A stretch of DNA of 64,000 bases from Oscillospiraceae bacterium. GTDB taxonomy: Bacteria; Bacillota; Clostridia; Oscillospirales; UBA929. The notes under the pieces are model-generated. The model was not told the DNA's origin. It did no database searches and worked only from the letters and a program-made list of their open reading frames with translations. Every line of letters begins with the position of its first letter. Position 1 is the first letter of the stretch. The stretch covers positions 11,309 to 75,308 of the forward strand of contig JAVBOR010000030.1 in the NCBI GenBank assembly GCA_031550325.1, written 5' to 3'. Both the position numbers and the translations under genes were made by a program. This document shows, one piece after another, positions 4,799 through 56,128 of this stretch.

Positions 4799-4830
4799 TC
4801 AGCGGTAACCAAAAAGGCATAGCGCTTCAA

Positions 4831-4859
4831 GGCCCGCCGGACATTTTGTCCGGCGGGCC
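4831..4859 (+). terminator. GC-rich hairpin downstream of S-layer gene (possible terminator, no U-tract)
   Basis: GGCCCGCCGGAC-ATTTT-GTCCGGCGGGCC, perfect 12-bp stem, 33 nt after stop codon; followed by TCAGCC rather than T-run. Confidence 0.45.
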
Positions 4860-4864
4860 TCAGC

Positions 4865-6751: not shown

Positions 6752-6972
6752 TGTCAAAGAACCAATGGTTCTTTGACAAAGCGGGGACAGGCTCGCGTCT
6801 TTGTGAAGACGCGTTCCTGCTCCCGTTTGTAGACAAATCGAAGGTTTGTCTACAGACTAAAGGCATTCCCGGAATGAATCCGGGAATGCCTTTTGGTCTC
6901 ATCTTTTGCGGTTTTTATCCCAGAAAGCACCTTGCGGCTGCGCCGTCAGGCTCGGCGTAAAAACCGCAAAAG
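6752..6972. repeat. Intergenic repeat locus R2 (modules A-B-C-D-E, all intact)
   Basis: Hairpins: A 6752-6778 TGTCAAAGAACC-AATG-GGTTCTTTGACA; B 6794-6813 CGCGTCTT-TGTG-AAGACGCG; C 6828-6854 TGTAGACAAA-TCGAAGG-TTTGTCTACA; D 6859-6893; E 6903-6972 with perfect 14-bp outer stem CTTTTGCGGTTTTT/AAAAACCGCAAAAG. Confidence 0.9.
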
Positions 6973-7012
6973 GGTGCGGATGCGTGGGGCTCGTTGACGC
7001 GCGGGCAATGTG

Positions 7013-13770: not shown

Positions 13771-13836
13771 CGCGTCTTCGCAAAGCCGCGAGCCTGACCT
13801 CAGCTTTGTCAAAAAACCGAGGGCTCTTTGACAAAG
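13771..13836. repeat. Intergenic repeat locus R3a (degenerate B plus A module)
   Basis: CGCGTCTTCGCAAAGCCGCG (B-like) and 13804-13836 CTTTGTCAAAAAACCGAGGGCTCTTTGACAAAG (A-like, degenerate near the loop). Confidence 0.7.
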
Positions 13837-13844
13837 ACTCAGAC

Positions 13845-13995
13845 TGTTGACAAAAGTTGCAGTCGCGATTCCAAAGCTTTTCCGACCAGCAAATCCGGAA
13901 CATTTCGCCGCATTAGGGCGCTTTAGCGCCTCCAATCTTCCGGATTTGACAACTCGCCACTGTGCGGCTTCGGGTCGGAAAAGTCTTTGTCATCA
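13845..13995. repeat. Second repeat family F, copy 1 (~150 bp)
   Basis: Aligns by eye to the reverse complement of 29443-29600 (e.g. GGATTTGACAACTCGCCACTGTGCGGCTTCGGGTCGGAA versus CCATTTGACAACTCACCGCTGTGCGGCTTCGGATCGGAA). Confidence 0.8.
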
Positions 13996-14107
13996 GCCTT
14001 TTTTGCCCATAAACGAATCTAAGCGGCGCGCCCGCAGCTCTGGCCCCGGAAGCGCCGCTCAGAAGTACAAAACCTGGTAAGAAGAGCCCCGCAAGCCTTT
14101 AGCCGCC

Positions 14108-26058: not shown

Positions 26059-26666
26059 CGTTCGGACTCCTCCAACGCGCTTTGCATGGCCTTGAGCGTG
26101 CGTTCCAGCAGGGTGTCCAGCTCGATGCCCAGCATGTCGGCGCCCGCCTGGATGACGCTGCGGGAGCAGCCGGCCGCAAAGCTCAGATTTTTATACTTCT
26201 TTCGAAGCGACGCAAGTTCCATGTCACAGACGCTGCGCGAGGGCCGCATGAGCGCCGCCGCGCCGATCAGCCCGGTCAGCTCATCCACGGCATACAGCAC
26301 CTTTTCCATGACGGATTCAGGCCGGATATCCACGAAAAGGCCATAACCGTGGCTGGCGCAGGCGCGCACGATGAGCTCGTCAACGCCGTGCTCACGCAAA
26401 ATGGCTTGCGTCCTGACGCAATGCTCGTCGGGGAACCGCTCGAAGTCGAGGTCGTGCAAAAGTCCGACGACCGCCCAGAGTGCCTCGTCCTCTCCGAGAT
26501 CACGCGCCCACCAGCGCATCACGCTCTCCACGGTTTGGGCGTGCCGCAGCAGAAAATCCTCCTGCGTATACTCTTTAAGCAGCGCCATGGCCTGCGCGCG
26601 GGAGGGAATCATGGGCCAACCTTCTTTCATAATGGCGTTCAGACTGTCAAAAAAGCTCCCTCGCAC
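26055..26666 (-). CDS. HD-domain metal-dependent phosphohydrolase
   Basis: LLHDLDFE HD motif, HA..VE..M; alternative starts at 26630 or 26612 (MIPSRAQAMALL) are equally plausible. Confidence 0.75.
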   Translation of the reverse strand: MRGSFFDSLNAIMKEGWPMIPSRAQAMALLKEYTQEDFLLRHAQTVESVMRWWARDLGEDEALWAVVGLLHDLDFERFPDEHCVRTQAILREHGVDELIVRACASHGYGLFVDIRPESVMEKVLYAVDELTGLIGAAALMRPSRSVCDMELASLRKKYKNLSFAAGCSRSVIQAGADMLGIELDTLLERTLKAMQSALEESER

Positions 26667-26946
26667 TCCCGCAAACCGCTTCAGCGGGTTGATCCGCTCC
26701 CCGGCTTTGTCAAAGATCCGAAGGGGTTAAGGCAAGCCGGCGCATTCAAGCGCCTTTCGCAGTTTTAGTATAGCACCCCGCATGGGCTAAGGCAAGACGG
26801 TTGTTTTCCATGTAAAGCCGGCGCGTGTACACGCTCTATTATGAATTGACGTGGCCTCTTTGGCTTGGTATAATAATGCGCGTACGCGGCCCGCGGTGAG
26901 AAACGTTGCGCTTCGGGCGAAATGAAGAACCGGGAGGGGGGAGACC

Positions 26947-28364: not shown

Positions 28365-28368
28365 ACAG

Positions 28369-28552
28369 TTTGTCAAAGAACCTCCGGTTCTTTGACAAAG
28401 CGGGGGTCTGGCTCGCGTCTTTGCGAAGATGCGCAAAGAAATGCTTTCCCGAAGTGAATCCGTGAAAGCGTTGTGGTTCAATCTTTTTCGGCTTTCAGTC
28501 CAGCAAGGACCTGCCGGCTGCGCCGTCAGGCTCGACATGAAAACCGAAAAAG
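28369..28552. repeat. Intergenic repeat locus R4 (modules A-B-D-E)
   Basis: A 28369-28399 TTTGTCAAAGAACC-TCCG-GTTCTTTGACAAA; degenerate B 28414-28433; D 28439-28472; E 28483-28552 (stem CTTTTTCGGCTTTC/GAAAACCGAAAAAG). Confidence 0.9.
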
Positions 28553-28586
28553 GACGAGGACGCGAGGGGTTCTTTAACAACCTAGG

Positions 28587-29398: not shown

Positions 29399-29442
29399 CT
29401 CTCCCGGGGCTGCCCAAAGCAGTTGCTCCGCACCTCCCAGGC

Positions 29443-29600
29443 TGATGATTAAACAGTTCCGATCCGAAGCCGCACAGCGGTGAGTTGTCAAATGGGGAAC
29501 ATTTCGCCGCATCCATGCCTTAATGCGGCAAAATGTTCCCCATTCTCTGGTTGAAAAAGCTTTAGAGTCTCGACTGCGAAGGACAAACTTGACAATCAAA
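29443..29600. repeat. Second repeat family F, copy 2 (inverted relative to copy 1)
   Basis: Homologous to the reverse complement of 13845-13995; contains a 19-bp hairpin at 29494-29541 (GGGGAACATTTCGCCGCAT...ATGCGGCAAAATGTTCCCC, 1 mismatch). Confidence 0.8.
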
Positions 29601-31116: not shown

Positions 31117-31159
31117 GTGGGCTGGGGACAGAGGCTGATAAAAGCCCCTCGCATGCTCG

Positions 31160-31378
31160 TCCTTTTCCTGGATTCACGTCGAGCCTGACGCCGAAGGCGG
31201 CGGGTTCTTGCCGGACCGGATCCAGGAAAAATATGAACCACAACGGTTTCGGGAGTTCATTTCTCGAAACCGTTTCTCGTCAAACCGCCTCAGCGGTTTG
31301 ATCCTGCTTTCGTTTTGTCTAAGAACCAAAGGTTCTTTGACAGGCTTAGGCTGCTCAAGAATCTAGGTTCTTTGACAG
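31160..31378. repeat. Intergenic repeat locus R5 (E-D inverted, G, A, plus a half-A inside the CDS end)
   Basis: E 31160-31231 (stem TTTCCTGGATTC/GGATCCAGGAAA); D 31242-31274 (AACGGTTTCG...CGAAACCGTT); G 31281-31300 CAAACCGC-CTCA-GCGGTTTG; A 31313-31343; half-A GGTTCTTTGACA 31366-31377. Confidence 0.85.
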
Positions 31379-32937
31379 ATAAAAATGCCCTGCTCCTTGC
31401 TAATGTGGAACACGCCGCCGTTCTCAAAGCAGCGCCCGACCAGCGCCTCGAACTCGGCGGAAACGTCCTCGGGGATGTGGTTATACGACCTGATATAGGC
31501 AATTAAGTCGCTCGGATCGGGCACCTCAAGCGCGTCGGGGTATTCGCGCTTTTCCACCGCACCGAAGTGCTTGCCGAGGAGCGCTGCTCCGTTTTCCAGC
31601 GTAAAGCTGATTTTATTCATGAAGACGAACTCTGCCTTGCCCTCGAACGCGCGGTAAAGGTCATGCAGCTCCTTGAGCGAGTCTTGGCCGAGTGTCGTGG
31701 CGTAGAAAGCGCCGCCGGGCTTGAGAACCCTGTATGCCTCCCGCAGCCCCTTGTTCAGGTCGGGCACATGGTAAAGCATGTGGTTGGCGATCACGACGTC
31801 AAAACACTCGTCGGGGTAGGGAAGACTTTGAATGTCCGCCTCCTGAAACGAAAATACCGGATTGTCGCCGAGGCGCTCCTTGACCTTGGAGACCATGAGA
31901 GGGGAAAAGTCTGCAAGGATGACGGCACAGCCGCCGGGCAGCCGGTGCGCCCTGCCCTGCCAGAGCTGGCCAGTGCCGCAGCCGAGCTCGAGAATCCTCG
32001 CGTTCGGCTGAATGGAAAGCTGGTCAAACACCCAGTTCTGCCAGCCGTAGGGGTTGACGCTGCACTTTTCCTGAAAGGCGATGCGGATAGAGAGCGTGTC
32101 CTTTTTTTTGTACATTTCGTCCAGGTGGCCGGCCCGCCACATGCGCGGGATGGCCTTTTCGCAGTCGACGATATACGTGTCATACTCGTGGCTGAAGTGG
32201 TAGCCCAGCTTTTGGGCCAGCGCCACCGACGCCTTGTTTGCGGCGTCCCAGCTCGGGTAGAGGCCGCGGCTCAGGCACTCCAGGATCAGCCTGGCAGCGC
32301 AGGCCGTGGCAAGTCCCTTGCGGCGATGCTCCCTTTGGGTGTCGACTTCAATTTCAATGCCGCCGTCATAATAGGTATAGGACGACGCGCCGCCGACGAT
32401 GTCCCCGCCGTACATCGCGCAAAAGCCCAGGCCCTTTTGCGCGAAGTGTTCGGCGGAACTGAACTGCGAGCAGAGGTCGTGCGAGAAGTTCTGCTCAAGC
32501 GCCCGCGCATAAAGCTCGGTGTCGATTTGCCTGAGCGTATATCCCGGAGGAAGAGTCTCGGCCAAAGCCGCGAGTTTTGCTTTGTCAAAGCAGTCGGGCT
32601 CCTTTTTTATGGCGTATCTGCTTGTGAGTTCACAGGCGTCCGGGAAAGCCTCTTCTATAAGCGCCGACCACTCTTTGTCGGGTGGGGCAATCAGAAACGT
32701 GGAGGAAGGGAAGTCTGCGGGGATGTGACTTGCGAGCTCGGCGGCGCCCTGCGAGGCGGCGTCTCCCCTCAAGAAGCAGAAGTCGCCGACAAGGACCTGC
32801 ACGCAGGACGGGGCCTCGAGGCTGTCGGTCCATCCGCGCCCAAGATGCCCCTGCAGATAGGAGAGGGCGAGCGTCTCCTGCGTGTTGCCAAAAAACCGCT
32901 CAAACGCCTTTTCGGCGCCCTTGGGGATTTGCTGCAT
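31363..32937 (-). CDS. Fusion protein: GNAT-family acetyltransferase-like N-terminal half plus class I SAM-dependent methyltransferase C-terminal half
   Basis: N-terminal half ends with a GNAT core (HRRKGLATACAARLILECL); C-terminal half has ILELGCGTGQLW (motif I), FDVVIANHMLYHV, LKPGGAFY. Confidence 0.7.
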   Translation of the reverse strand: MQQIPKGAEKAFERFFGNTQETLALSYLQGHLGRGWTDSLEAPSCVQVLVGDFCFLRGDAASQGAAELASHIPADFPSSTFLIAPPDKEWSALIEEAFPDACELTSRYAIKKEPDCFDKAKLAALAETLPPGYTLRQIDTELYARALEQNFSHDLCSQFSSAEHFAQKGLGFCAMYGGDIVGGASSYTYYDGGIEIEVDTQREHRRKGLATACAARLILECLSRGLYPSWDAANKASVALAQKLGYHFSHEYDTYIVDCEKAIPRMWRAGHLDEMYKKKDTLSIRIAFQEKCSVNPYGWQNWVFDQLSIQPNARILELGCGTGQLWQGRAHRLPGGCAVILADFSPLMVSKVKERLGDNPVFSFQEADIQSLPYPDECFDVVIANHMLYHVPDLNKGLREAYRVLKPGGAFYATTLGQDSLKELHDLYRAFEGKAEFVFMNKISFTLENGAALLGKHFGAVEKREYPDALEVPDPSDLIAYIRSYNHIPEDVSAEFEALVGRCFENGGVFHISKEQGIFICQRT

Positions 32938-33087
32938 ATCGTCACCAACTTTCCGTTACTGCCTATATTATGCGCTTCAGCCGCGTTTTTGGCAAGGCCC
33001 TGTTCCCAAAAGGCAAAAATGGCGCCGATTTTGTTGAAAACGAGCAATACATTACTAGTCCTGGGAAAAATAGAATCCGATAATTTG

Positions 33088-33115
33088 TTGATTTTTCTAA
33101 AAATTGTGGTATACT
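33088..33115 (+). promoter_or_regulatory. Sigma-A promoter with extended -10 (TTGATT-16-TGgTATACT) in an AT-rich gap
   Basis: -35 TTGATT 33088-33093; TGG TATACT 33107-33115; faces the small ORF and vWA gene. Confidence 0.5.
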
Positions 33116-33200
33116 TATCTTTAGAAGGAAGCCTGTAATGATACGCAATCAGAATGGAATAAGAAGAAATGGGTTTGAAAAGAAAGGTGGAGCGAGAACT

Positions 33201-33368
33201 ATGAAGCAGGCGTACATAAAACCCAAGGCAACGTTGATCAGTCTCTTCCCGGAGGATCGCCTGTGCGCGGACGGCTGCCTTCGCGGGTATGGTGGTCCAG
33301 GCGCGGAGGAATATCCGCAGAACACGAACTGCACGATTCTCTTCGATCAGGGCCCCTCGGAATCCTAG
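33201..33368 (+). CDS. Small hypothetical peptide (55 aa, 3 Cys)
   Basis: MKQAYIKPKATLISLFPEDRLCADGCLRGYGGPGAEEYPQNTNCTILFDQGPSES; strong RBS AAAGGTGGAG 8 nt upstream of the ATG; between the predicted promoter and the vWA gene. Confidence 0.4.
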   Translation: MKQAYIKPKATLISLFPEDRLCADGCLRGYGGPGAEEYPQNTNCTILFDQGPSES

Positions 33369-33473
33369 ACGGGGTTTCGGTGCTTTCACAACAGCTAGAT
33401 GATTCAGGGCTCTCTTTTTGAGAGATACCTGGACAAGAGGATTTGGGTGAAAGTCTATTTTGAAGGTGATACG

Positions 33474-35453
33474 ATGAAAACTACACGAAAACGTCGCTTA
33501 CATGCAATGGTCGTTGCCCTCGTTCTGATGGCTATTCTCGCAAACATTCTGCTTGTCACGTTTGCGTATAATGGCCCCGGCGGACAAACGCTCAACTTGA
33601 GCGGGAAGGGCGCGGACCCCTCTACCATGGATTCCTGGAAGGATCAGAGCGGACCTGTCTTGGAAGACGGCGAGGTTTGGGCGGATAAAACCGTGCAGTA
33701 CGCCCGGCCGAATGACGGCGAGTTTACGGTCACGCTTTCGGCGCTGGCGCGTGAAAAAGCTCTTTATGAAGAAGCCGCCGAAAATTTGATTGTCCTGATG
33801 ATCGACTGGTCGGGCAGTGTGGTGGACTTTAATACGGCCTGCCATACCGCAGAAGGCGTCCTTGACACGATTTACGCAGATCGTCCGGAAAGCAGAATCC
33901 TGATGGTTTCTTACGGAACCAATAACGTCACCTCTCCTGTATTCAGTGACTCCGTTTCAGCAAAAGACTACCTGAATACATTTATCAAGGCCAACAAGCC
34001 CACCGTAGAGAAGGATAGCGGTACCAACATACAAGGCGCCATTTTCGCGGCTGAGCAAGCGCTTAAACTGCACATGGCAGCCTCCGGCGAACGGCTGGTT
34101 CCCTCCTATGTGCTGATCACGGACGGGGTGCCTACCTACGCGTATCGCTATGTGCTCAACGAAAGCGTCACGCCTGACGTCGGCTTGCGCATGGGCGACG
34201 GCCACACGCCGCACACCGCGTTTTACGGCCAGCCGCTGTTCAGTTTCCAGACCATCCTTCAGGCGAATGCCTCCAAGAAAGCGCTGCCGGGGAGCCTGTT
34301 CTTTACCTTCCGCTCTCCTGGCGACAACAGCAGCAGCGCATCGGCAACCTTGGGCGCTGCTCTGCCCAATGAAGACCTTCTGTACATACACGACGGCAAA
34401 TACGAGGTTCAAAAGCTTATCCCGGGCACCAACCCCGAGGAGTGGGAAGAGTATACAAACGTTTCCAATCCCTTTGTGAATATGTTCCACGCGTTTACCG
34501 ATGAGCAGACCTTTACCGAGCCCTATTTTGTGGAAGTCGATCGATATGTGGGCGGCCAGTACCGCACCGGATACTGGGTGTATCCCACCTTTATCGAAGA
34601 GAGCCTGCCCCAGAACTACACGCCGTACGCCGACATTGCGGCCGGTCTGAACGTGAATCCGGCCGACACCGGACTGACCAGTATGCTTGCCCAGCAGCGC
34701 GTTGTCCGCAACGGCGTCATCAAGCCGCTGCGCGCTGAGACAGATATGGTCATCACCGACGTGCTGGGCGAAACCTTTACGCTGGACGCTCAGGCGCTCA
34801 CCGCCGCCGCCGCCGCGCAGGCGCCGGGAACGAGCGTGGCTTACGACGAGACGACCAGAACCGTCACGTGGACCATCCCCGCTGCGCTTGTGCCTCTGCT
34901 GCCGTGCACGGAGGATTATCAGGAGCCCAGTAACGTAGCGCCGCTCCGGCTGAGTTATGATATTTTGTTCAGCCCCGCTGCCGGCCAGCTGGACAACTGG
35001 TCCGAGGGAATGCGCTACTACACAAACGCGCGCACGATGCTTGCGGGCGTCGAGTCCAATCCGAACCTTGCCACCTTTGCTCCCAACCTTCTTGCCGGAC
35101 GCTACGTAAACGAGACCGAGACCATCCTGCTTCCCAATCGCGGTTGGGTTGAGCTGACGGTCAGGACTCCGCCCACAAGCAGCGGCAGGACCAGCACAAC
35201 GCCGAGCGACCCCACGAGCTTTTCTCCGCCGCCCAGCGATGAGTTTACCACGCCCAGCATTCCGATCGATTTTCCGGTTTCTCCCTCTCCCAGCGATGAT
35301 GGGTTTGAGGATACCAGCATTCCGATTGACCCGCCCATTCCGCCGACAGGCGGCGTGAACTCAGCTTTATTCATGCTTTTCGGGGGTATAGCTCTGGTGG
35401 GCTGTGGTCTCCTGCTCGGAAGAAAAGTCGGCGGAAACGTGTCCCAGGATTAA
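33474..35453 (+). CDS. vWA-domain surface protein with LPXTG-like (IPPTG) C-terminal sorting signal
   Basis: Signal/TM MKTTRKRRLHAMVVALVLMAILANILLV; MIDAS DWSGS...TN...TDG; Pro/Ser/Thr-rich stalk; C-terminus IPPTGG, then hydrophobic stretch, then GRKVGG. Confidence 0.75.
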   Translation: MKTTRKRRLHAMVVALVLMAILANILLVTFAYNGPGGQTLNLSGKGADPSTMDSWKDQSGPVLEDGEVWADKTVQYARPNDGEFTVTLSALAREKALYEEAAENLIVLMIDWSGSVVDFNTACHTAEGVLDTIYADRPESRILMVSYGTNNVTSPVFSDSVSAKDYLNTFIKANKPTVEKDSGTNIQGAIFAAEQALKLHMAASGERLVPSYVLITDGVPTYAYRYVLNESVTPDVGLRMGDGHTPHTAFYGQPLFSFQTILQANASKKALPGSLFFTFRSPGDNSSSASATLGAALPNEDLLYIHDGKYEVQKLIPGTNPEEWEEYTNVSNPFVNMFHAFTDEQTFTEPYFVEVDRYVGGQYRTGYWVYPTFIEESLPQNYTPYADIAAGLNVNPADTGLTSMLAQQRVVRNGVIKPLRAETDMVITDVLGETFTLDAQALTAAAAAQAPGTSVAYDETTRTVTWTIPAALVPLLPCTEDYQEPSNVAPLRLSYDILFSPAAGQLDNWSEGMRYYTNARTMLAGVESNPNLATFAPNLLAGRYVNETETILLPNRGWVELTVRTPPTSSGRTSTTPSDPTSFSPPPSDEFTTPSIPIDFPVSPSPSDDGFEDTSIPIDPPIPPTGGVNSALFMLFGGIALVGCGLLLGRKVGGNVSQD

Positions 35454-35471
35454 CAGATAAGCAGTTTTATC

Positions 35472-35503
35472 AGGATCCCCCTTGAGTATTCAAGGGGGAT
35501 CCT
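35472..35503 (+). terminator. Perfect 13-bp hairpin after the vWA gene (possible terminator, no U-tract)
   Basis: AGGATCCCCCTTG-AGTATT-CAAGGGGGATCCT, 19 nt after the stop. Confidence 0.45.
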
Positions 35504-35507
35504 CAGT

Positions 35508-36048
35508 CTGTAGACAAAGGCCGCCTCTTCGTTCCTTTGCGCAAAACCACGTCGAGCCTGACGCCGAAGGCAGCGGGTCCCTGCTGGACTGGTTGAGCGC
35601 AAAGCATGGAAACAAGTGACTTCCACGAATTCACTCCGGGAAAGTCACCCAATGCGCGTCTTCACAAAGACGCGTTCCTGCTCCCGTTTGTAGACAAATC
35701 GAAGGTTTGTCTACAGTCTCAACAAACCGCTGAGGCGGTTTGCAGGGAAACGGTTTTGAGAAATGAATTCCCGAAACCGTTGAGGTTCCTATTTTTCCTG
35801 GATTCAGTCCAGCAAGAACCTGTCACTTGCAGCGCCAGACTCGACGCGAATCCAGGAAAGGGACGAAGGCGCAAAGCTCCGGTTTGACTACAAAACGATG
35901 AAAAGTGATCGGCTCTGTGGAGCCTCCCAAAGAAAGGCTTTCCCGGAGTGAATCCGAGAAAGCCTTTCTATTTCATCTTTTGCGGTTCACATCCCAGAAA
36001 GGACCTTGCGGCTCCGGCCGCAAGGCTCGGCGTAAAAACCGCAAAAGG
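35508..36048. repeat. Intergenic repeat locus R6, largest array (209-bp composite plus G plus two further D-E units plus H)
   Basis: E 35533-35605(-), D 35612-35650(-), B 35655-35674, C 35688-35716, G 35722-35743, D 35746-35782, E 35792-35860, H 35886-35926, D 35932-35968, E 35976-36048. Confidence 0.9.
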
Positions 36049-36135
36049 ACGAGCGCGCGGGACTGTTGCTTTGCACCAAGCTCCAGTAGCTCCTGGAACA
36101 AGGCAGGTGAACACCCCACGCGGAGACTCCAGCTA

Positions 36136-36180
36136 TATAACAAAGTGTCAAAAAAACAGACAATTCGACAGTTTGTTATA
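36136..36180 (-). terminator. Hairpin downstream of addA (weak terminator candidate)
   Basis: TATAACAAAGTGTC ... GACAGTTTGTTATA (14-bp stem, 1 mismatch, 17-nt A-rich loop). Confidence 0.25.
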
Positions 36181-36227
36181 TGGAGAGGCCGTGGATGACC
36201 GTGTCGGCGGCGGTTCGGCTGATTTGT

Positions 36228-39200
36228 CTACTCCAGAGCCAGGGCCTGATCGATGGCGAAGAAATAGACGAGCTTTTCTCCGACCTCCAGCCCGGTCATG
36301 CGCTGTGCGGCGTGGGCGTAAGTCTCCAGCTGCACGCGGTAGTGCTCGGCGCGCGCTGGCGCGCCCTCGGGGCTTATGGAGTCAGTCTTGAAATCCAGCA
36401 CAATCAGCTTGCCGCTTTCGACGAAGAAGCAGTCAATAACGCCCTGCAGCAAAATCTCCTCCCCCATGGCTGTCGTGGCGCCGGTCAGGACGTCGGCGGG
36501 CTCGAGCATGGAAAACTTGCACTCCCTCCAGAGCCTTGTTGCCTTCAGGACGCGCTGGCCCAGGTCGCTCTGAAAGAACAAGGCTATTTTTTCGGGGGAC
36601 ACGGCGTCTGTTTGCTCGGGCGTGAGGATGCGCCGCTTTGCAAGGCGCGACAGCTCGCCCCGGACACCGCCGGCGCTCTGGCAAGCAGCATACGAAATAA
36701 ACTGCATGGCCAGATGGTAGGCCTGCCCGCGCTCCGGCCCCGATAAGCCGCGCCCGCGCGCTGGGCTTTGCGAAAGAAAGGTGCCGGTGCCCTCCCAAAC
36801 CTCAAGATCGGTATAGCGGCCCTTCAGCTGGGTCACCGTCATCTTGGACGGCAGGTCGACCGCGCCGGCGTAAGGGTAGACAAAGGCATCGCGCGCCTGA
36901 ATCGCGTCGCGTTCGGCGCCGGGGGCGGGCGCGGCGGTCAGTGCCGCCGGCGGGGCGGCCAGCCAGTCGGGCTCGGCCACGCCCAGCAGAAGATCCATGA
37001 AGCTGGAAGCCTCACGCAAGCTCTGCGCGGGCGTCGTCTCGCTGCCCAGCATGATCAGCTTGTTCTGCGCGCGCGTCATCGCGACATACAGCAGGCGCAG
37101 CTCTTCGGCCTTGTGCTCGCGCGTGAGCTCCTGCCGCACCGCGTGGTAGGCGGCGGTAGGGTACTCGCACAAGTCGGTGCGCCGCTTCAGGCCGCAGCCG
37201 GTCGTTTCGTGCATCAGGAGCTTGGCGTTCATATCGCGAAGGTTGTACGACCTGCCAAGGTCGGCCAGCACGACAACGGGAAACTCCAGACCTTTGGACC
37301 TGTGAATGGTCATGAGCCTGACGGCGCTGTCCGTGTGCACGCGGGTGCGGGAGAGTGTCTGCCGGTGAAGCCACGGCAGAAAGGCGGCCAGGCCGCTTTC
37401 GTGCGGGCAGGCTTGGGCAAGCTCTAAAAAAGCCATGAGATCGGCCTGGCCCTGTGCGTCAAACTTTGTGTCCAGATCGGTTTGCGCGTAAATACGCGAC
37501 ACCAGCCGCCACACGGGAAGGTCGGGCGCGAGGTAGCGCCACTGGCGCAGCAGAATGAGCAGCCGCTGGCTCTTGAGCTGCGTGTCGGCCAGCAGGCAGT
37601 CGTACAACGACAGCTCCGACACGGCGCGAAGCGACGCCAGCTCCTCGGCAGTAAACGCGAACGCGGGCGAGCGCAGCGCGGCGAGTAGCTGGACGTCGTT
37701 GCGCGGGTTGAGTGTGACCTCCAAAAGCGAGGTGATCGCCCGCACGGCGCCGGACTGTTCGTCCTCGGCAGCGTCGGAGTTTGCGTCCAGACCGGCGTCG
37801 CGCAGCGCCGCCAAATAGGCCGGCGCGCGGTTTTTCAGCGAGCGCAGCAAAATAACGCAGTCCCCCGGGCGGGCAAAACCCGCGTCGATGAGCGCGCGAA
37901 GCCGCGCAGCCACGGCGCGCGCCTGCTGAGCCAGCTTATCGCTCTCGCCTGTGTCGGGCAAGGCGATGAGCTCGACGGCGGGCTCCTGCTGCGGGGGAAA
38001 GCCCAGACCGCTCCTGAGGGGCGGCCCATAGTCCATCTCGGCGTCCGCGCGCGTCATCAGGCGCTCAAGCGTGTGGTTTACGGCCGAGAGAACCTCGGGC
38101 CGCGAGCGGAAGTTGCTGGTCAGATACACCTTGCACGGGCCGGCCGCCGCCTCGCTCCACAGCGCAAACTCGTCGAGCTTGCGCAGAAAGATGGTCGGGT
38201 CGGCGTGCTGGAACCTGTAAATGGACTGGCGCACGTCCCCCACATAGAACACATTGTCCCTGCCGGCGGACAGCGCGTCGATCAGCGCGTCCTGGCGCGC
38301 GTTGACGTCCTGGTACTCGTCGACCAGAATCTCGGCAAAGCGCGCGCTCACGGTCAGCCCTGTTTCGGTCGGGCGGCCGCTCTCGTCGGTGAGCAGGGAG
38401 AGCGCGGCAAGCTCATAGTCGGTGAAGTCGGCCAGCTTGCGCGCCGCCTTCTCCTGCCGGTAGGCCTCGTCAAAGCAATTCACGGCGAAAAAGAGCCCGC
38501 TGAGCACCTCCTGCGTGTCGGCGATGTCGGCAAGATTGTCCTCATGCGTGCAGGAGATGCGCTCGCACAGAGCCCCGACGCCCTTTTTCCAGCCGTCCCG
38601 CTCGGCGCGAAGGCCTTCGGCCTGATCCTTCGCGGCGTCGTCGACGGCTTTAAAGGGCTTGAGCTTGGCAAAGCTCAGCGCGTGAAGCGCCTCAAAGGCT
38701 TTGTCCCAGCCCGCGCCCAGCGCGCCGTCCAGCGCGGTCAGCGCGTCGATATCGCTCAGGAGCGCCGGCGCGTACGCCGTGTACAGCGCGGGATCGTCCA
38801 CGCCCTCCAGGGCGCTTTGCGCTTGGGCGCGCCACTTGGCCAGCTGATGGCGCGCGTCCTCCAGTACGAGCTCTTCCCAGAACTGTACGCGCCTGTCGGA
38901 GGCGCGCAGCTGCTCTGCCCGCCAGCCCGCCGGGCCGCGCATCGTTCGGGTCTTTCGCCAGGTTCTCTCGACAAGCTCCGAAACCGCCCTGTCACCGCGC
39001 ATGTCCACAAAGGCGTCGACAAAGCGCCCGAACTGCGGCAGCCCGCCGCCTTCCAGCTGGTCGTACAGCTCGTCCAGCACGCGGTTCAGGGTGTCGCCGA
39101 ACAGCCCGGCCGCCTCGCTGTCCTCGCAGACCCTGACGTCGGGCGGCAGGACGCTTTGGGCGGCGAACTCGCGCAGCAGCTCGACGCAGTACGCGTGCAG

Positions 39201-39503
39201 CGTGCAAATGCGCGCCGTGTACAGGCGGTTCAGCTGGCGGCGCAGATGGCGGCTATCCGGGTCGGCCTCCATGCGCCCGCGCAGCGCGCGGAGAATGCGC
39301 GCGCGCATCTCCCCGGCGGCGGCGCGCGTATAGGTGATGAGCAAGAAGTCGTCGATGTTGCGCGGGCAACTCTCGTCTGTGAGATAGGCCATCAGCCGCT
39401 CGACAAGCACAAGGGTCTTGCCCGCGCCTGCCGCCGCCGAGACCAAAACGGTGCGGCCGCGCAGCGTGACGGCGGCGTGTTGTTCATCCGTGAGCTCTCT
39501 CAT
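36228..39503 (-). CDS. addA: ATP-dependent helicase/nuclease subunit A (AddA)
   Basis: 1091 aa; UvrD-type motifs VSAAAGAGKT, ILVDEYQDVN, TIHRSKGLEFPVV; C-terminal RecB-type nuclease region (QGVIDCFF...LDFKTD). Confidence 0.9.
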   Translation of the reverse strand: MRELTDEQHAAVTLRGRTVLVSAAAGAGKTLVLVERLMAYLTDESCPRNIDDFLLITYTRAAAGEMRARILRALRGRMEADPDSRHLRRQLNRLYTARICTLHAYCVELLREFAAQSVLPPDVRVCEDSEAAGLFGDTLNRVLDELYDQLEGGGLPQFGRFVDAFVDMRGDRAVSELVERTWRKTRTMRGPAGWRAEQLRASDRRVQFWEELVLEDARHQLAKWRAQAQSALEGVDDPALYTAYAPALLSDIDALTALDGALGAGWDKAFEALHALSFAKLKPFKAVDDAAKDQAEGLRAERDGWKKGVGALCERISCTHEDNLADIADTQEVLSGLFFAVNCFDEAYRQEKAARKLADFTDYELAALSLLTDESGRPTETGLTVSARFAEILVDEYQDVNARQDALIDALSAGRDNVFYVGDVRQSIYRFQHADPTIFLRKLDEFALWSEAAAGPCKVYLTSNFRSRPEVLSAVNHTLERLMTRADAEMDYGPPLRSGLGFPPQQEPAVELIALPDTGESDKLAQQARAVAARLRALIDAGFARPGDCVILLRSLKNRAPAYLAALRDAGLDANSDAAEDEQSGAVRAITSLLEVTLNPRNDVQLLAALRSPAFAFTAEELASLRAVSELSLYDCLLADTQLKSQRLLILLRQWRYLAPDLPVWRLVSRIYAQTDLDTKFDAQGQADLMAFLELAQACPHESGLAAFLPWLHRQTLSRTRVHTDSAVRLMTIHRSKGLEFPVVVLADLGRSYNLRDMNAKLLMHETTGCGLKRRTDLCEYPTAAYHAVRQELTREHKAEELRLLYVAMTRAQNKLIMLGSETTPAQSLREASSFMDLLLGVAEPDWLAAPPAALTAAPAPGAERDAIQARDAFVYPYAGAVDLPSKMTVTQLKGRYTDLEVWEGTGTFLSQSPARGRGLSGPERGQAYHLAMQFISYAACQSAGGVRGELSRLAKRRILTPEQTDAVSPEKIALFFQSDLGQRVLKATRLWRECKFSMLEPADVLTGATTAMGEEILLQGVIDCFFVESGKLIVLDFKTDSISPEGAPARAEHYRVQLETYAHAAQRMTGLEVGEKLVYFFAIDQALALE

Positions 39504-42500
39504 GGCGTATCCCCCTCCCGAAGCGCCTGCCAGAATGACTGAAGCGAAAAGCTCTGCAACGGCGCGTCTTTCTCGCGCGAGGCGTCAAAGTAGCAGCATG
39601 GCGCAAAGTCGCAGTTGTCGCAGGCGCTGCTCTGGCCGCTCTCCCGCACGGGAACGGCGCGAACGTCCCCCCGGATCAGGTCGGAGGCCACCGCGCGCGT
39701 CAGGGCTTCGACGTGACGCCCCAGCCGCGCGAAATCTTCCCGGTCGCCCACCTGAGACCGCTGGTCGAGCTCGCCGCTCTTTTTGCGGTCAAACGGCAGA
39801 AGACCAGCGCCGTCCGGGCCGCTCATCGCCTCCAGCACGGCGTCGTCGGCCAGCAGAAGGCCGCGGCGCTTGAGGCCGGCGGACGGGCCGGGCAGCTGCG
39901 CGCCCGGATGGGACTTTAAGGTGAGAACCTCGTCGCGGGCGGGGACATAGAGCATCCCCGCGGGTTCGATGCGGTCGGCGCCGAACAGCCCGGCCCCCAG
40001 CTTGGCCAGCGTGAACAGATACAGCGGCAGCTGCAGCCCCAGGCCGTGATAGAGCTCCGAGACCGAAAAAATCTTTTTGCCGGTTTTGTAGTCGACAACC
40101 CGAAGATAGAGGGTGCCGTCAGGCCCGCGCCAGCCGTCCACGCGGTCAACCGCGCCCTCGACAAGCGCCGAAAAGCCGCCGGGCAGGCCGTCCACGCGGA
40201 CGGCGGGCAGCTTCCCGCCGCGGTCGGAAAAGCGCAGTTCATAGGCGAGCGGAGAGAACAGGGAAGCTTGCAGCTCGGCCAAAACATCGGCGGCGATGCT
40301 CACCGCCGAGCGGCGCAGCGTGTCGAACAGCCGCGCAAAGCGCCGCGTGTGCCCGGCAAAGCCTTTCAGGACGGTATTCTCGTAGGCGGTCGTATACATA
40401 GCGGCCCAGTCGCGCACCTGTTCGGCGGTCACGTTTGCCGCGCCGCCGGCGAGCTCTGTGTTTCGCCCGGTCTGCTCAAGCATGCCGTGGATAAACGCGC
40501 CGATGTCCAGCGGGGCAAACCCCGGCTGTTCGGTCGGGCGGGCGCGCAGCCCATACTGGCAGAAGTAGGCAAACCGGCAGGTGAACGCGCGCTGGAGTCT
40601 CGTCGCGCTGAAACGCAACTCCGTGCCGTACAGAGACGTGACGGCGTCGGGGGAGAGCGGCTCGCGCAGCTCGGGCGGCGGCGTAAAGGGCCGCACAACC
40701 GGGGGAAGCGCGGTGATCTCCACGCCGCAGAGCGCGCAGGCGCGGCTGAGCACGTCGGCGGGCAGCGCCTTGCCGTCGCCGTCTCTGGAAAAGCTCAGGT
40801 ACAGGGCGTCGGACGGAAGCGTCATGGCGGCATAGAGGTTGAACAACTCGCGCTCCAGCCTCTGCTCGCCGTCCGGCGGCATCTGCAGGTCAAACGCCTC
40901 CAGAACGGCGCGCTCCTCCAGGGACAGCAGCGAGTCGGTGTTCGGCACCATGGGCATCGCGTCGGCGCGCGCGCCGGGCAGAAACACAACGCGGGGCGAA
41001 TGCCGGCGCAGGCGGCCGCACTGGCCGATGCCGACGCGGTCAAGCGCGACCGGAATCGTGCCGACCTGGCAGCCGGACAGCAGCAAGAGCAAAAGATCCA
41101 TAAAGCCGTCCAGGTTCATCGGCGTATCTCCGAGAATCGAGGCGCACTCGTCCAGAGCCTCTACAAAAAGCTCCCAAAGCTGGGCGCACTCGTCGGCCAG
41201 CTTGAGCTCCCCAAGCGACCGAAGCGCCTCGATGCGGCGCTTCAGCGCGCGGTCAACGCGCATTTGCAAAAGGACTTGGAGCAGAAGCTTACTCCAGCCG
41301 GACGCGGTGCGTCCGCCGCGCAGCGCGGACAGCGGCGTGTGGATGAGGGCGCGCATACGGTTGACAAAGATAAGCGCGCGCGTGTCCTCCTCGGTCATCG
41401 TCTCGACATAGCCGCGCGGATGCAGCGTAAACGGTTTTGCCCACTGCGCGCCGTGGGGCCGCCACCGGCGCAGATAGGGCTCAAAGCGGTCAACCTGCTC
41501 GAGCGGCGCGCGGAACAGACCGGTGCGCAGCAGGACAAGCACGTCCTCGCTGCGCCAGCCGTACAGCGTGATGTCGGCGAGGGCGCGCAAAAACTGCGGC
41601 AGAGCTTTGCCGATGACGTCGTCGGTGCTGTCCATAAACACGGGAACGCCCTCGCGCTCAAAAGCCCGCTCAAGAAGCGGGCCGTAGAGGGGCAGGTCGT
41701 TGACGGCCACCTGCATGTCGCGGTAGCGCAGCCCGCCCGCCGCCAGGCGCTGGACTGTCTGGGCGATGACGGCGCACTCGTCCGAGACGGTTTGCGCGCA
41801 CAGCGCAGTGACGGCGCCGCCGCCGTCAACGGACAGCGTGGATCTGTCGAAAAAGTGCGCCTCCAGATGGGCCAGCGCGGGGGCGGAAAAGCGCCTTGGC
41901 TGTGTCAGGACGGTCTGCGTCGCGTCGCCGAGCGCTCTTGTAAGCGCGGCGGCCGTGCGCTGGGCGACCGGGAAGTCCTGACCGTCGGGCAGGCCGCACA
42001 GCGCGCAGAGAATCTGCCCCCGTCCCTGCGAGAACGCGCTCAAAACGTCGATTTCCTGCGGGGTAAACGTGACAAAGCCGTCCAAGAAAAGCCTCTTGTC
42101 CAACGCAAAAAAACTGTGGCGCAGCTTGTCCGCCAGCAGCGTCAGTCTGTCGCGCTTGTCCAGCGGGCCGGAGGCCAGCAGCGCGTTGTAAGAGGCGTAA
42201 ATCAGCGAAAGCTCACGCAATTTCAGCGCGGAGGAGCCCTTGGCCGCGTCTGAGGCCTGATGCAGGGCCTCGGGCGCAATGCCGTAGCATTTACACTCAT
42301 CCACGGTCTGGAGCAGCGAGGCCAAAAACGCGGGCTTGTGGGCGTTTTTGGCCCACAGGCTCAGCTGATCGCGCACCACGTCGACCGCGAGGCGCATGGT
42401 GAGAAGCCGCCCTCCGTCGGAGAGCGGCCGGCGGGCCAGACCGCCCTCCTGTCCAAACACGCGGTCGGCCAGCCGCCCGAACGTGAGCACCTCGGCGTGC

Positions 42501-42673
42501 AGGCAAATGGCCGGGCCGCCGTGCGCCGCCAAAAAACGCTCGCACTCGTGGGAGAAGGGCTCCGGAACAAGCCAGATCAGGCCCTCCTCGCCGTGCGCCG
42601 CGCGCGCGCAGATTTCATTAACGATTGTTGTCGTCTTGCCGCTTCCGGCGCGGCCCCAGAGAAGGTGCAGCAA
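39500..42673 (-). CDS. addB: ATP-dependent helicase/nuclease subunit B (AddB)
   Basis: GRAGSGKT P-loop near the N-terminus; C-terminal nuclease with Cys cluster (CDNCDFAPCC); ATGA overlap with addA. Start placed at TTG 42673 (GGGAGG RBS); the ORF-track extension to 42772 looks non-coding. Confidence 0.85.
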   Translation of the reverse strand: MLHLLWGRAGSGKTTTIVNEICARAAHGEEGLIWLVPEPFSHECERFLAAHGGPAICLHAEVLTFGRLADRVFGQEGGLARRPLSDGGRLLTMRLAVDVVRDQLSLWAKNAHKPAFLASLLQTVDECKCYGIAPEALHQASDAAKGSSALKLRELSLIYASYNALLASGPLDKRDRLTLLADKLRHSFFALDKRLFLDGFVTFTPQEIDVLSAFSQGRGQILCALCGLPDGQDFPVAQRTAAALTRALGDATQTVLTQPRRFSAPALAHLEAHFFDRSTLSVDGGGAVTALCAQTVSDECAVIAQTVQRLAAGGLRYRDMQVAVNDLPLYGPLLERAFEREGVPVFMDSTDDVIGKALPQFLRALADITLYGWRSEDVLVLLRTGLFRAPLEQVDRFEPYLRRWRPHGAQWAKPFTLHPRGYVETMTEEDTRALIFVNRMRALIHTPLSALRGGRTASGWSKLLLQVLLQMRVDRALKRRIEALRSLGELKLADECAQLWELFVEALDECASILGDTPMNLDGFMDLLLLLLSGCQVGTIPVALDRVGIGQCGRLRRHSPRVVFLPGARADAMPMVPNTDSLLSLEERAVLEAFDLQMPPDGEQRLERELFNLYAAMTLPSDALYLSFSRDGDGKALPADVLSRACALCGVEITALPPVVRPFTPPPELREPLSPDAVTSLYGTELRFSATRLQRAFTCRFAYFCQYGLRARPTEQPGFAPLDIGAFIHGMLEQTGRNTELAGGAANVTAEQVRDWAAMYTTAYENTVLKGFAGHTRRFARLFDTLRRSAVSIAADVLAELQASLFSPLAYELRFSDRGGKLPAVRVDGLPGGFSALVEGAVDRVDGWRGPDGTLYLRVVDYKTGKKIFSVSELYHGLGLQLPLYLFTLAKLGAGLFGADRIEPAGMLYVPARDEVLTLKSHPGAQLPGPSAGLKRRGLLLADDAVLEAMSGPDGAGLLPFDRKKSGELDQRSQVGDREDFARLGRHVEALTRAVASDLIRGDVRAVPVRESGQSSACDNCDFAPCCYFDASREKDAPLQSFSLQSFWQALREGDTP

Positions 42674-42803
42674 CCAAAATTCCTCCCAAAATCCGCTGGG
42701 CGGAGAAGATCTGCGCAGGCCGCCCCCGAATGATGCCGGGGGAGGCCTGCGCAATGTAAACCGTCTTCCCAATCCTTGGCGCGCCGAAAGAGTCCATTGA
42801 CAA

Positions 42804-43145
42804 GAGTTTTCCCCGACTCACTCCGGAAAAACCCTCTCTGCAAACCGCCTCAGCGGTTTGATCCAATCCTTCGCTTTGACAAGGAACCGGAGCCCTTTGT
42901 CAAAGGGTGTAAACAGAAGCGGTATCCGCGCTCCTTTGCGCAAAACCACGTCGAGCCTGACGGCGTAGCCGGCAGGTCCTTGCTGGACTGGTTTAGCGCA
43001 AAGGAGCGAAACAAGAGACTTTCACGGATTCATTCCGGGAAAGTCGTTCTCCGCGCGTCTTCGCAAAGACGCGATCTAAGCCCCCGTTTGTAGGCAAACC
43101 GAAGGTTTGCCTACAGCCTGCAAAGAACCGAAGGTTCTTTGTCAG
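42804..43145. repeat. Intergenic repeat locus R7 (D-G-A-E-D-B-C-A)
   Basis: G 42841-42860; A 42874-42905; E 42931-43006 (CTCCTTTGCGCAAAACC/GGTTTAGCGCAAAGGAG); D 43015-43046; B 43053-43073; C 43087-43116 (GTAGGCAAACC-GAA-GGTTTGCCTAC, compensated variant); A 43118-43145. Confidence 0.9.
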
Positions 43146-43152: not shown

Positions 43153-44991
43153 TTATTTTGTTGTCAGTGCGTTATAGAGCTGAACAAACGTGACGTCGGC
43201 CATCTCGCGCGAGAAGGTCATTTTGGGCTCAAAGCCCTTGGCGGTGCCGTTCATGATGCCGTTGGCCGAGACGTAGTCAACAGCGCTCGTTGCCCATGAG
43301 GAGATCGTGGCCTTGTCGGAAAAGCTGTTGGCCGGGGCAGCCGACATGAGCCCGAGCGAGCGCACGGTGTTGGCCAGCATGACGGCCGCCTGCTCGCGGG
43401 TGATGTCCCCGTTCGGGTCGAAGATGGTCGTGGACTTGCCCGCTACGACGCCCAGCTTGTTGGCCGCCACGATGACCTTGTCGCTGGTGTCGGTAAACGT
43501 GTTGGTCGAAAGGTCGATGCCGCGTTCGGCGATCAGCTGGTCGAGCGTTTTGCCGGTCACCGACTCCATGAGCATGACCGCCTGAAGGCAGAACTCGGCG
43601 CGCGTGGCGTTTTTCTTGTAGTCGCCGATCAGCGAAGCGGGGATCAGATTATGGGCGTAAGCCGCCTCGATGTGCACGGTCGCCCACGAGCTGGCCTCGC
43701 CGAGCTTGAGGTCGACAGGAAGCTCGCCGGGCACGCGGACGCCCGACAGAATTTGAACGGGACTCATGCGCCCGGTGGCCGAACCGTCGCCAATCGAGCC
43801 CTCTGTGTTGCTTTGGCCCCAGGACCACAGCGTGCCGTCCTTTTTCAGCGCCAGCGTACTGTAGTTGCTGAGTACGGCGCTTTCAACCCCGTCAAGAACC
43901 TTGACAGGAGCCGAACGGTTTTCTTCGGTGCTGTCGCCGAGCTGTCCATAGAGGTTGTCTCCCCACATCCACAGCGAGCCGTCGGCCTTCAGCGCGCCGA
44001 AATGTACGGCCCCGCTAAAGAGTGAGGCAGCGCCCGTCATCTTCAGCGCCGGCTGGCTTCTGGAGAATACTATTCTGGTCTCGGTTGATTCAACCGAAAG
44101 CGTAGCCTGATAAACGTCTCCGTTTTGCTTAAGCATGACGACATCCTGAATACCGTTGACAATGCTGACCACCCCGTCGGCGTACTTTTCAGGTGTTTCG
44201 ACAAAGTCTACATTGGCGGTTGTGGACGTGACATTTAATCCCTTCACCCCCCAGAACCACACGGTACCGTTGGTCTTCAGGGCAAAGGTCCCTATCAGAT
44301 CTCCGGAAACCGCGGCAACGTCGCTGAGCAGCTGAGACGGGGCCGTCGAGCCGCTTGCTCCCAGATATTCGCTCATTCCATAGTATTTGTCGCCCCAAGT
44401 CCAGAGGGTGCCGTCCAGCTTGACCGCCATGCCCTGGTAGATGTGGATGTCCATGTTGCGAACGCCGTCCATGAGTTTGACCGGGCTCAGCCGGTCCCTC
44501 GTCGTGCCGTCGCCGATCAAACCGTTTGCGTTGCTTCCCCAGCTCCAGAGACTGCCGTCCTTTTTCAGCATCAGCTGCGTCTCGCCGTTTGTAGTGACGC
44601 TTTTGACGTCTTTGGCGATCTCAACGGGGCTCGGCCGATCGACCCTGCTGCCGTCGCCGAGGTAACCTACATTGTAACCCCAGCCCCAGAGCGTGCCGTC
44701 CTTTGTGATTGCGTAGTTGGTTTCGCCTATCGCCATGACGGAGATGACGTCAGTCATGACTTTGACCGGGCTCAGCCGGTCGGTCGTCGTGCCGTCGCCA
44801 ATCTGGCCGTAGTTGTTGAATCCCCAGCACCACAGTGAGCCGTCGGCCTTAATGGCCATGCCGCCGTCCAATCCGGTGTCAAATGTGCGCGTGAGGCGTT
44901 CCTGGGGCGCGACCGCGTCCGCGGCGAGGGCTGGCAACGCTGATAACAGCATGAGAAGGGCAAGAACCAGACAAAGTAATCGTTTTTTCAT
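43153..44991 (-). CDS. Secreted RCC1-repeat beta-propeller protein with three C-terminal SLH-like domains (paralog 1)
   Basis: Signal peptide [23 protein letters not shown] (GGAGGA RBS); repeated GSLW.WG.N..GQ(L/I)GDG units; C-terminal ...[14 protein letters not shown], ...[16 protein letters not shown]. Confidence 0.8.
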
Positions 44992-45132
44992 AATAATTCC
45001 TCCAAAACTAGCAAAGTAGTCTTCACGGCGCGGCCCGCCAACCGTTGCGTCCGGGCGGCGCGTGAAGCTCAAATGTTATTCCCAGATGACGCCCATCGGA
45101 GGTACGCTAAAAAGCCGCCAGGCTCTCCAGCT

Positions 45133-45406
45133 TGCAGACAAAGAGGGCTTTGTCTACAAAACGATGACAAATGATCGGCTCTGTGGAGCCTCATAAAGGA
45201 ATGTTTTCCCGGAGTGAATCCGTGAAAGCATTGCGGTTTAATATTTTGCGGTTTTTGTCCCAGCAAGGACCTTGCGGCTCCGGCCGCAAGGCTCGGCGTA
45301 AAAACCGCAAAAGGACGAGAGCGCGTAAGGTTTATCTTCAGTCTGACGTCTGCCGCCGAAGGCGGCAGACCCTCGTTTTGACAAAGAACCTATGGTTCTT
45401 TGTCAG
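45133..45406. repeat. Intergenic repeat locus R8 (C-H-D-E-hairpin-A)
   Basis: C 45133-45158; H 45155-45192; D 45198-45234; E 45242-45313 (ATTTTGCGGTTTTT/AAAAACCGCAAAAG); hairpin GTCTGCCGCC-GAA-GGCGGCAGAC 45348-45370; A 45376-45406. Confidence 0.9.
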
Positions 45407-45413
45407 TTTATTA

Positions 45414-55673: not shown

Positions 55674-55675
55674 GG

Positions 55676-56128
55676 CTGTCAAAGAACGTGTGCTTTCGCT
55701 TTGTGAAAGCACACGTTCTTTGACAAAGCGGGGGTTGGATCAAACCGCTGTGGCGGTTTGCAGAGTAGGGCGTTCCCGGAATGAATCCGGGAACGCCCTA
55801 AGACTGTAGACAAACCTTCGATTTGTCTACAAACGGGAGCAGGAACGCGTCTTTGTGAAGACGCGCATTGGGTGACTTTCCCGGAGTGAATCCGTGAAAG
55901 TCACTTGTTTCCATGCTTTGCGCTCAACCAGTCCAGCAGGGCCTAGCCGCCTTCGGCGTCAGGCTCGACGTGGTTTTGCGCAAAGGAACGAAGAGGCGGC
56001 CTTTGTCTACAGGCAGACAAACCGAAGGTTCGATGGGAAACGGTTTCGAAGAGTGAAATCCCGAAACCATTGTGGTTCATTTTTTTTGGATTCAATCCAG
56101 CAAGAACCTGTCGGCTGCGCAGCTGAGA
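55676..56128. repeat. Intergenic repeat locus R9 (A-G-D, 209-bp composite, then a D-E unit)
   Basis: Extended A 55676-55728 (20-bp perfect stem GTCAAAGAACGTGTGCTTTC/GAAAGCACACGTTCTTTGAC); G 55741-55760; D 55766-55800; C 55804-55832; B 55845-55865; D 55871-55904; E 55915-55987; D 56036-56073; truncated E 56082-56128. Confidence 0.9.

Follow-up and report, generated by a model that had tools for sequence, protein, structure and literature searches.

Architecture of the vWA/addA gap

The window, i.e., the whole 64-kb stretch of DNA analysed, is ordinary chromosomal DNA with a G+C content of 60%, and its gene content includes a glycolysis operon, alanine racemase, FtsX, MATE pumps and SLH/RCC1/LRR surface proteins. 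Within it, a gene for a vWA-domain protein (33399–35453, + strand; 684 aa; Pfam VWA/VWA_2; GC3 0.68) converges on addA (36228–39503, − strand), whose product matches UvrD helicase and PD-(D/E)XK nuclease in Pfam; the next gene after addA is addB (39500–42772), also identified with Pfam. The ORF calls and the Pfam matches thus bear out the 774-bp convergent intergenic region (35454–36227), with vWA on the + and addA on the − strand, that had been proposed in the first-pass annotation. The nearest named relatives of AddA belong to the Oscillospiraceae and are only 37–43% identical to it, indicating that the host is a deep-branching, uncultured Clostridia-like organism, which is in effect known from a single sample.

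This gap contains the largest cluster in the window of a composite repeat of about 200–212 bp, which, with all copies aligned in one orientation, consists of two halves, designated P and Q. In the P half (~65 nt), a conserved 12-nt spacer (CGGGrGCAGGAT) separates hairpin 1 from hairpin 2. The former occurs as variant A (TTGTCAAAGAACC...) or A' (CTGTAGACAAACC...), and the latter as variant B (CGCGTCTT...), G (CAAACCGC...) or C (GGCTC...); both are palindromes of 20–30 bp, and the alignment of P units from the window comprises 12 units. The Q half (~132 nt) contains hairpin 3 (H), with a conserved loop (...GGAGTGAAT... / ...CCGGAGTGAATCCG...), a linker of ~10 nt, hairpin 4 and the conserved tail GGACGAGnnnGCGnGGGG. 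Hairpin 4 has an outer D/E stem around a conserved interior of ~45 nt that has an apical stem of its own. A covariance model (CM) of Q recovers nine full-length copies (118–144 bits) and three truncated ones, and nothing else in the window. A second copy of a hairpin-1 arm at the far end of the element gives it inverted ends. Since both arms lie within the block that is 97% identical between two copies (see below), this favours a terminal inverted repeat over a target duplication.

The description of the gap as being composed almost entirely of hairpin modules is correct from 35472 to about 36066 (~77% of its length) but not for the last ~165 bp, which are unique except for one AT-rich hairpin. 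The order of the array is a single hairpin (T1), a class III element on the − strand, a 5'-truncated class II element and a 5'-truncated class I element, both on the + strand, and unique DNA. T1 (35472–35503) lies directly after the vWA stop codon and adjoins the class III element; it is a unique and perfect hairpin, with a 14-bp stem, 100% complementary, and a 4-nt loop. It had been considered terminator-like, a reading that is not sustained because it lacks a T-tract and is absent from the output of the terminator scan.

The class III composite (35508–35719, −) is complete, with both P and Q, and is the youngest copy in the array. It spans 212 bp, instead of the 209 bp given before, with perfect 11-bp inverted ends (CTGTAGACAAA / TTTGTCTACAG). 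Its Q unit (35519–35652, −; CM 131.5 bits, full length) contains H-III (35616–35648), the D-interior-E hairpin (35534–35604) and the tail (35519–35535), and its P unit (35653–35719, −) consists of hairpin 1, of type A' (35688–35716), the spacer (35675–35687) and hairpin 2, of type B (35655–35674). Of the class II element (35723–35876) hairpin 1 and the spacer are missing, and the sole remnant of its P half is a hairpin 2 of variant G (CAAACCGC-tgag-GCGGTTTG; 35723–35742, +), at which the homology to 31300–31157 begins exactly. Its Q unit (35745–35876, +; CM 118.3 bits; 81.8% identical to 31147–31278) has H-II at ~35747–35781, D-E arms at 35794–35805/35848–35859 and a tail.

The class I element (35866–36062) has lost the left arm of hairpin 1, which is overlapped by the class II tail. 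What is left of its P unit (35866–35929, +) is the right arm of an A' variant (TTTGACTACAA; 35883–35893), the spacer and a hairpin 2 of variant C (GGCTCtgtgGAGCC; 35911–35924), and it aligns with the full copy at 45130–45196; by BLAST, 35883–36059 matches 45149–45325 with 88% identity. The corresponding Q unit (35930–36062, +; CM 131.6 bits), which is 82–87% identical to other class I units, has H-I at 35931–35969, the D-E hairpin at 35977–36047 and a tail. There follow a unique spacer without self-match in the window (36063–36134) and, downstream of addA, an AT-rich hairpin present as a single copy in the window (36135–36181; 18-nt arms, 89% complementary). As occurs with T1, this hairpin has no T-run after its stem and was not reported by the terminator scan.

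The individual hairpins named in the first-pass annotation are thus located at 35472–35503, 35931–35969 and 36135–36181, together with the class II D-E arms, although its division of the array into modules needed revision. H is not a separate module, as every D-E unit has its own H-type hairpin (H-III, H-II and H-I), and neither is G, which falls in the hairpin-2 column of the P alignment as the variant of the class II element. The three D-E classes do occur side by side in the gap, but the list was incomplete because there is a fourth variant at 28436–28567. That the stem classes coexist was confirmed, with identities among Q units of 81–96% within classes and 60–80% between them.

Folding, covariation and copies elsewhere in the window

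Recurrence of the modules is far above what is expected by chance: the D-E core pattern has seven matches in the window, with none expected, and the other modules have 3–10 matches versus 0–0.6 in shuffled sequences. Folding of the gap gave z values of −16 and −15 on the two strands compared with shuffled sequence, and the 212-bp class III element, folded as single-stranded DNA, gave −5.05 and −4.91, i.e., both strands fold equally. We evaluated the stems by comparison with controls in which the stem partners were slid by one to three columns. In the Q alignment, 95.7% of the cells were paired and 18 of the 36 pairs showed double changes, compared to 29–47% and 0–4 pairs in the controls; in the P alignment the values were 88.8% and 12 of 21 pairs, compared to 34–50% and 1–4 pairs. 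Both measures are far above the slid controls, which indicates that the stem classes are real and that stems were replaced compensatorily while loops, linkers and interiors were conserved. Compensatory changes distinguish the sub-families at each of the four stems. A putative long-range helix between the tail and the flank of hairpin 2, seen in the class IV fold, was discarded because it is not conserved in the other classes.

Among the exceptions to pairing, G·T (17) and A·C (22) were in balance; the units point either way with respect to the gene upstream of them, and the gap lacks a promoter-like site. Together with the equal folding of both strands, these observations are a better fit to a DNA-level palindrome, either a cruciform or folded single strands, than to a strand-specific RNA.

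Segments of 35472–36059 recur at about 10 other intergenic sites when the window is compared with itself. Complete elements are those of class II at 31132–31345 (−), with a P unit A-spacer-G followed by Q-II, and of class I at 45130–45405 (+), where Q-I comes after a P unit with an A' variant and C, with a terminator-like hairpin and a solo A hairpin beyond the element. Another complete element, designated class IV (28367–28584, +), has A-type arms as ends and a Q unit (28436–28567) that scores 144 bits with the CM. This Q unit is a hybrid, because a single compensatory pair separates its D-E outer stem from that of class I and the interior is nearly identical to that of the class III copy at 42918–43051; its sequence would correspond either to a recombinant or to an intermediate between classes.

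The class III composite recurs in the opposite orientation at 55801–56012 (97%) and also at 42908–43130 (81–82%), which confirms the earlier description of the composite as inverted. The first of these copies is part of a sister array (55675–56112, +) composed of a P unit (A-G), a solo H hairpin, the class III composite, a decayed A' hairpin and a truncated class II Q unit, and the second belongs to an array (42806–43140, −) in which an older class III element is accompanied by extra A, G and H-like hairpins. A truncated young class III copy is situated at 4858–4942 (−), with 96.5% identity to 35501–35585. At 6752–6987 (+) there is a mosaic of two head-to-head P units with one common B hairpin, followed by Q-I; the order A – spacer – B – inverted spacer – A' in 6752–6857 suggests fusion or recombination at the shared palindrome. 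The modules are also re-assorted among copies, with A combined with B or G, A' with B, and Q-I behind two different P types. These re-assorted modules, the hybrid class IV and the common B hairpin at 6752 point to additional recombination at shared palindromes.

Solitary A hairpins (TTGTCAAAGAACC-n3-4-GGTTCTTTGACAA) are found directly at the 3' ends of genes at 43112–43139, 45376–45405 and 13804–13836, with the rest of the element being absent; these may represent either REP-like units on their own or sites where elements land preferentially. The RCC1-repeat plus SLH-domain surface proteins are encoded by tandem paralogous genes at 43153–45072 and 45414–47222, with P/Q repeat blocks between and after them, and the coding self-matches at 43153–45980 are due to the internal similarity of these two paralogues. 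The window also contains a second, unrelated family of long palindromes of ~155 nt, with two copies in opposite orientation (13838–14000, +, and 29430–29590, −) that are 84% identical and whose arms also differ by compensatory changes, e.g., CCGG/CCGG versus GGGG/CCCC.

Distribution, growth of the array and database searches

With a total of 2.5 kb, the repeat family makes up 33% of the intergenic DNA and 3.9% of the window as a whole. All three convergent gaps contain it, on 78% of their bases, as do five of the 20 tandem gaps and, marginally, one of the three divergent gaps. Nearly all copies lie outside credible genes, and mostly at the 3' ends of genes. For REP-type elements, a position behind coding regions, in gaps flanked by unidirectional or convergent ORFs, has been reported (PMC3733652), and the distribution by type of gap is the same here. 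One degenerate P unit (26670–26736; A-like hairpin, spacer and G) overlaps the 3' end of a doubtful ORF (26082–26768), which may have been mis-called or extended by the repeat, as it has no Pfam match and a lowish GC3 of 0.66. The elements are oriented 7:4, with no visible replication-strand bias, although the GC skew is too flat for such a test.

The six-frame ORFs of the gap were regarded in the first-pass annotation as translations of the repeats, and our data agree with their being spurious. The GC3 of the 93- and 97-aa ORFs is 0.51–0.53, compared to 0.70–0.84 for genes, and a search among 5.8 billion protein clusters, with the first ~60 residues of the 97-aa ORF and other repeat frames as bait, found no homologues. 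The 93-, 97- and 147-aa ORFs should hence be flagged as non-genes, GC3 having been scored for the first two.

The most recent events in the growth of the array can be deduced from the class III copies. The composites at 35508–35719 and 55801–56012 are 97.2% identical over 212 bp, their flanks are unrelated, and the identity ends exactly at the 11-bp inverted ends. At both of these full sites the composite adjoins a class II unit, in opposite orientations, and these class II neighbours are only 78–86% alike. This difference in identity indicates that class III is a discrete unit, recently copied, that arrived beside older resident elements. Its recent copying involved at least two or three sites, each next to another hairpin or element. 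No consistent target-site duplication was found at the two full young class III copies and the truncated one, the only 6-mer overlapping the inverted ends at one copy.

The idea that the array had grown by nested insertion was not supported, because every Q unit in the gap is intact and full length (CM 118–132 bits) and the units abut end to end, with none of them interrupted. As judged from its sequence, the array is a juxtaposition of elements with truncated or shared terminal hairpins, and not a nest. As a separate observation, two of the three young class III copies lie with their tail against a GC-rich, perfect gene-end hairpin, a different one each time, that is followed by TCAG(C/T) (4830–4862 and 35472–35507, with TCAGC in front of the truncated copy at 4858), a context that may reflect a landing-site preference or five extra nucleotides of the end of the element.

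Short-read data were used to examine the assembly of the array. Three independent Logan contigs from SRR23967709 are 100% identical to the window (631–4887, 31245–35534 and 36024–42864), and each of them stops within a P/Q block on its repeat side. The contigs therefore reproduce the two outer junctions of the array (up to 35534 and from 36024), and its internal order (35535–36023) comes from one assembly. This breakage of contigs at the repeats confirms the dispersed, high-copy nature of the family.

Searches beyond the window did not identify the repeat in other organisms. AddA forms a singleton cluster among the 5.8 billion protein clusters; its next relative, 53% identical, has no vWA neighbour, no synteny and no repeat module. 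In a scan of genome contigs, the best identity to AddA was 39% on any segment and 37% for the top-ranked loci. The addA loci of relatives gave nothing by BLAST in ~1.3 Mb and a maximum of 20 bits with the covariance model in ~0.9 Mb. Exact look-ups of the vWA protein, the enolase, the aldehyde dehydrogenase and the product of the last gene of the window returned no record, and DNA pattern scans of the JGI metagenomes and IMG/VR yielded 15 loci, all of them chance matches of 22–28 nt. There was no match to the repeat in plasmid and phage collections. Rfam 15 gave no hits in the window at the gathering threshold, with a best E of about 0.3–0.5 in a permissive scan of the gap (best score 21.8 bits versus a threshold of 60). 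No tRNA or tmRNA was found, and Pfam identified no transposase, RAYT or integrase among the 36 window proteins that were scanned.

Origin of the repeat and relation to known families

Its recurrence, covariation, sub-family clustering, young copy, intergenic distribution, lack of coding potential and the breakage of contigs lead us to consider it probable that the gap contains one member of each of three sub-families of a small non-autonomous mobile DNA of the REP/BIME/REPIN/MITE kind, a composite palindromic repeat of ~200 bp that is non-coding and lineage-specific. The mechanism that we infer as most likely is one in which a trans-acting enzyme mobilises the element according to its structure and leaves no target duplication. 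The folded element, as single-stranded or cruciform DNA, would be recognised by an enzyme encoded elsewhere in the genome, with a REP-associated/IS200-IS605-type tyrosine transposase, or another enzyme leaving no target duplication, as the candidate. New copies would land preferentially beside existing palindromes, and clusters such as 35454–36227 would build by juxtaposition, followed by truncation or recombination at shared hairpins. Any effect on the host, such as stabilisation of transcript 3' ends or termination between convergent genes, would be secondary. The absence of a transposase, RAYT or integrase from the 64-kb window and the paired state of the GTAG/CGTC motifs count against a mobile repeat, and the orientation of the elements gives no positive sign of single-strand transposition.

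Several other explanations were weighed against a mobile palindromic repeat. Classical MITEs, i.e., deletion derivatives of IS moved by a DDE transposase that binds the 11–16-bp terminal inverted repeats, the internal hairpins being incidental, would account for the perfect 11-bp inverted ends of the 212-bp element, which can be extended to ~16 nt (TNAGNCTGTAGACAAA) and whose pairing can close the whole element; its size, non-coding nature and multicopy status also agree with the definition of MITEs (PMC3184786). Nevertheless, this explanation seems unlikely, because the two copies with 97% identity lack a target-site duplication, which would still be expected to be intact in them, and the window contains no related IS. 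Besides, a sequence-specific enzyme binding the ends does not explain that the terminal arms vary (A versus A') and remain self-complementary, or that the internal stems covary. An artefact of assembly, whereby the internal order or length of the array would be a chimera or an expansion from similar repeats, is very unlikely. The interior of the array (35535–36023) is covered by no independent contig, all short-read contigs stop inside repeats, and the units share near-identical cores of 30–45 nt; however, both unique-to-repeat junctions were reproduced at 100% by independent contigs, the three units belong to different sub-families with a mutual identity of 60–72%, easily told apart in reads, and similar arrays exist at four other loci.

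The very strong covariation could also reflect selection for RNA folding if Q, or the whole element, were transcribed as a multicopy structured RNA, in a role such as 3'-UTR stabiliser, terminator, or small RNA of the regulatory or guide type. Conservation of the unpaired loops and linkers and the location downstream of genes are in line with this, as is the fact that BOX, SPRITE and REP repeats are transcribed and have been proposed to act as RNA (PMC3184786; PMC3733652). However, tolerance of G·U in an RNA would be confined to one strand, which does not agree with the balance of G·T and A·C exceptions, and the units lie in both orientations to the upstream gene, in a gap without a promoter-like site and with no T-tracts after the stems. 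Moreover, no Rfam family reached its gathering score, and the count of Q units, twelve within 64 kb when the truncated ones are included, is more like that of a transposon than that of a gene, making this alternative quite unlikely. We regard as quite improbable, too, that the four swappable hairpins constitute a structural "address code" for a structure-guided mobilisation system that leaves no target duplication. This would involve a RAYT-like tyrosine transposase, or an RNA-guided IS110/IS605-type enzyme with the Q unit as its guide or bridge RNA, and there would be a separate, co-evolving enzyme for each stem class; if true, Firmicutes would thereby provide their first case of a REPIN-like symbiosis, an unusually complex one.

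As a mobile palindromic repeat, the element represents a previously undescribed, lineage-specific family and not a new kind of system; it resembles REP/BIME, REPIN and MITE but departs from tagged REPs, BIMEs and MITEs in one defining feature each. Like the REP/BIME of Enterobacteria, Pseudomonas and Stenotrophomonas, it is a high-copy extragenic palindrome situated downstream of genes, between convergent or unidirectional ORFs, that forms mosaics with other short conserved motifs, has sub-families by complementary stem changes and breaks assemblies. The E. coli REP types Y, Z1 and Z2 are sub-families of this sort. Since the division of REP families by complementary stem changes is already known (PMC3733652), the stem classes are not in themselves new. 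In contrast to REP/BIME, the unit is a composite of ~200 bp with four hairpins and not a palindrome of 20–40 bp, it shows no regular alternating orientation, no sequence similarity and no RAYT in the window. In a BIME, regularly spaced REPs alternate in orientation, with a few types of linker motif between them; here the mosaic of conserved modules is present, but the units of the gap run −, +, + with irregular spacing.

Unpaired terminal motifs are the tags that define the GTAG- and CGTC-tagged REP superfamilies (Di Nocera et al., 2013; PMC3733652). The 12 P units in 64 kb do contain extragenic palindromes of 20–30 bp, located mainly in convergent and tandem gaps. Membership in these superfamilies was rejected, as both motifs are paired inside symmetric stems, GTAG of A' with CTAC and CGTC of B with GACG. 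The host is a Clostridia-like Firmicute, a phylum that the text of the tagged-REP survey does not mention (PMC3733652).

With REPINs, the repeat shares a long imperfect hairpin of ~70–90 nt (D-interior-E), its non-autonomous nature, the lack of target duplication and the presence of young and old copies within a genome. REPINs are REP doublets, with the two copies inverted around a spacer, that form a long hairpin and are mobilised by RAYTs. The D-interior-E unit is likewise a long hairpin, with 23 supported pairs, but its D/E arms appear not to be copies of an independent REP and do not occur as free REPs in the window, and the element has three further hairpins and conserved non-palindromic segments. 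The similarity to MITEs such as Correia/NEMIS, ERIC, RUP, Nezha, Chunjie and bcr1 lies in being lineage-specific, intergenic and non-coding, with 100–250 bp, terminal inverted repeats and long stem-loops. MITEs are flanked by target duplications (PMC3184786), whereas the young copies described here are not; furthermore, the arms and internal stems vary compensatorily and there is no cognate IS in the window. The nearest modular analogue in Firmicutes is BOX from Streptococcus pneumoniae, also MITE-like, with a variable composition of modules (boxA-boxB-boxC) and a strong predicted secondary structure. It is, however, unrelated in sequence and in logic. BOX varies in the number of boxB modules, and here hairpin variants are swapped at fixed positions; moreover, the mobilisation of BOX has been attributed to an identified IS (PMC3184786).

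The mechanism is inferential and a new kind of system is not revealed. The repeat family explains the fragmentation of the short-read assemblies of this organism at intergenic regions, and it places such elements in a deep-branching, uncultured Clostridia-like lineage where they had not been described before. It offers a clean single-genome example of how palindromic repeats diversify, by compensatory stem replacement at four hairpins, re-assortment of modules and growth of clusters through side-by-side arrival.
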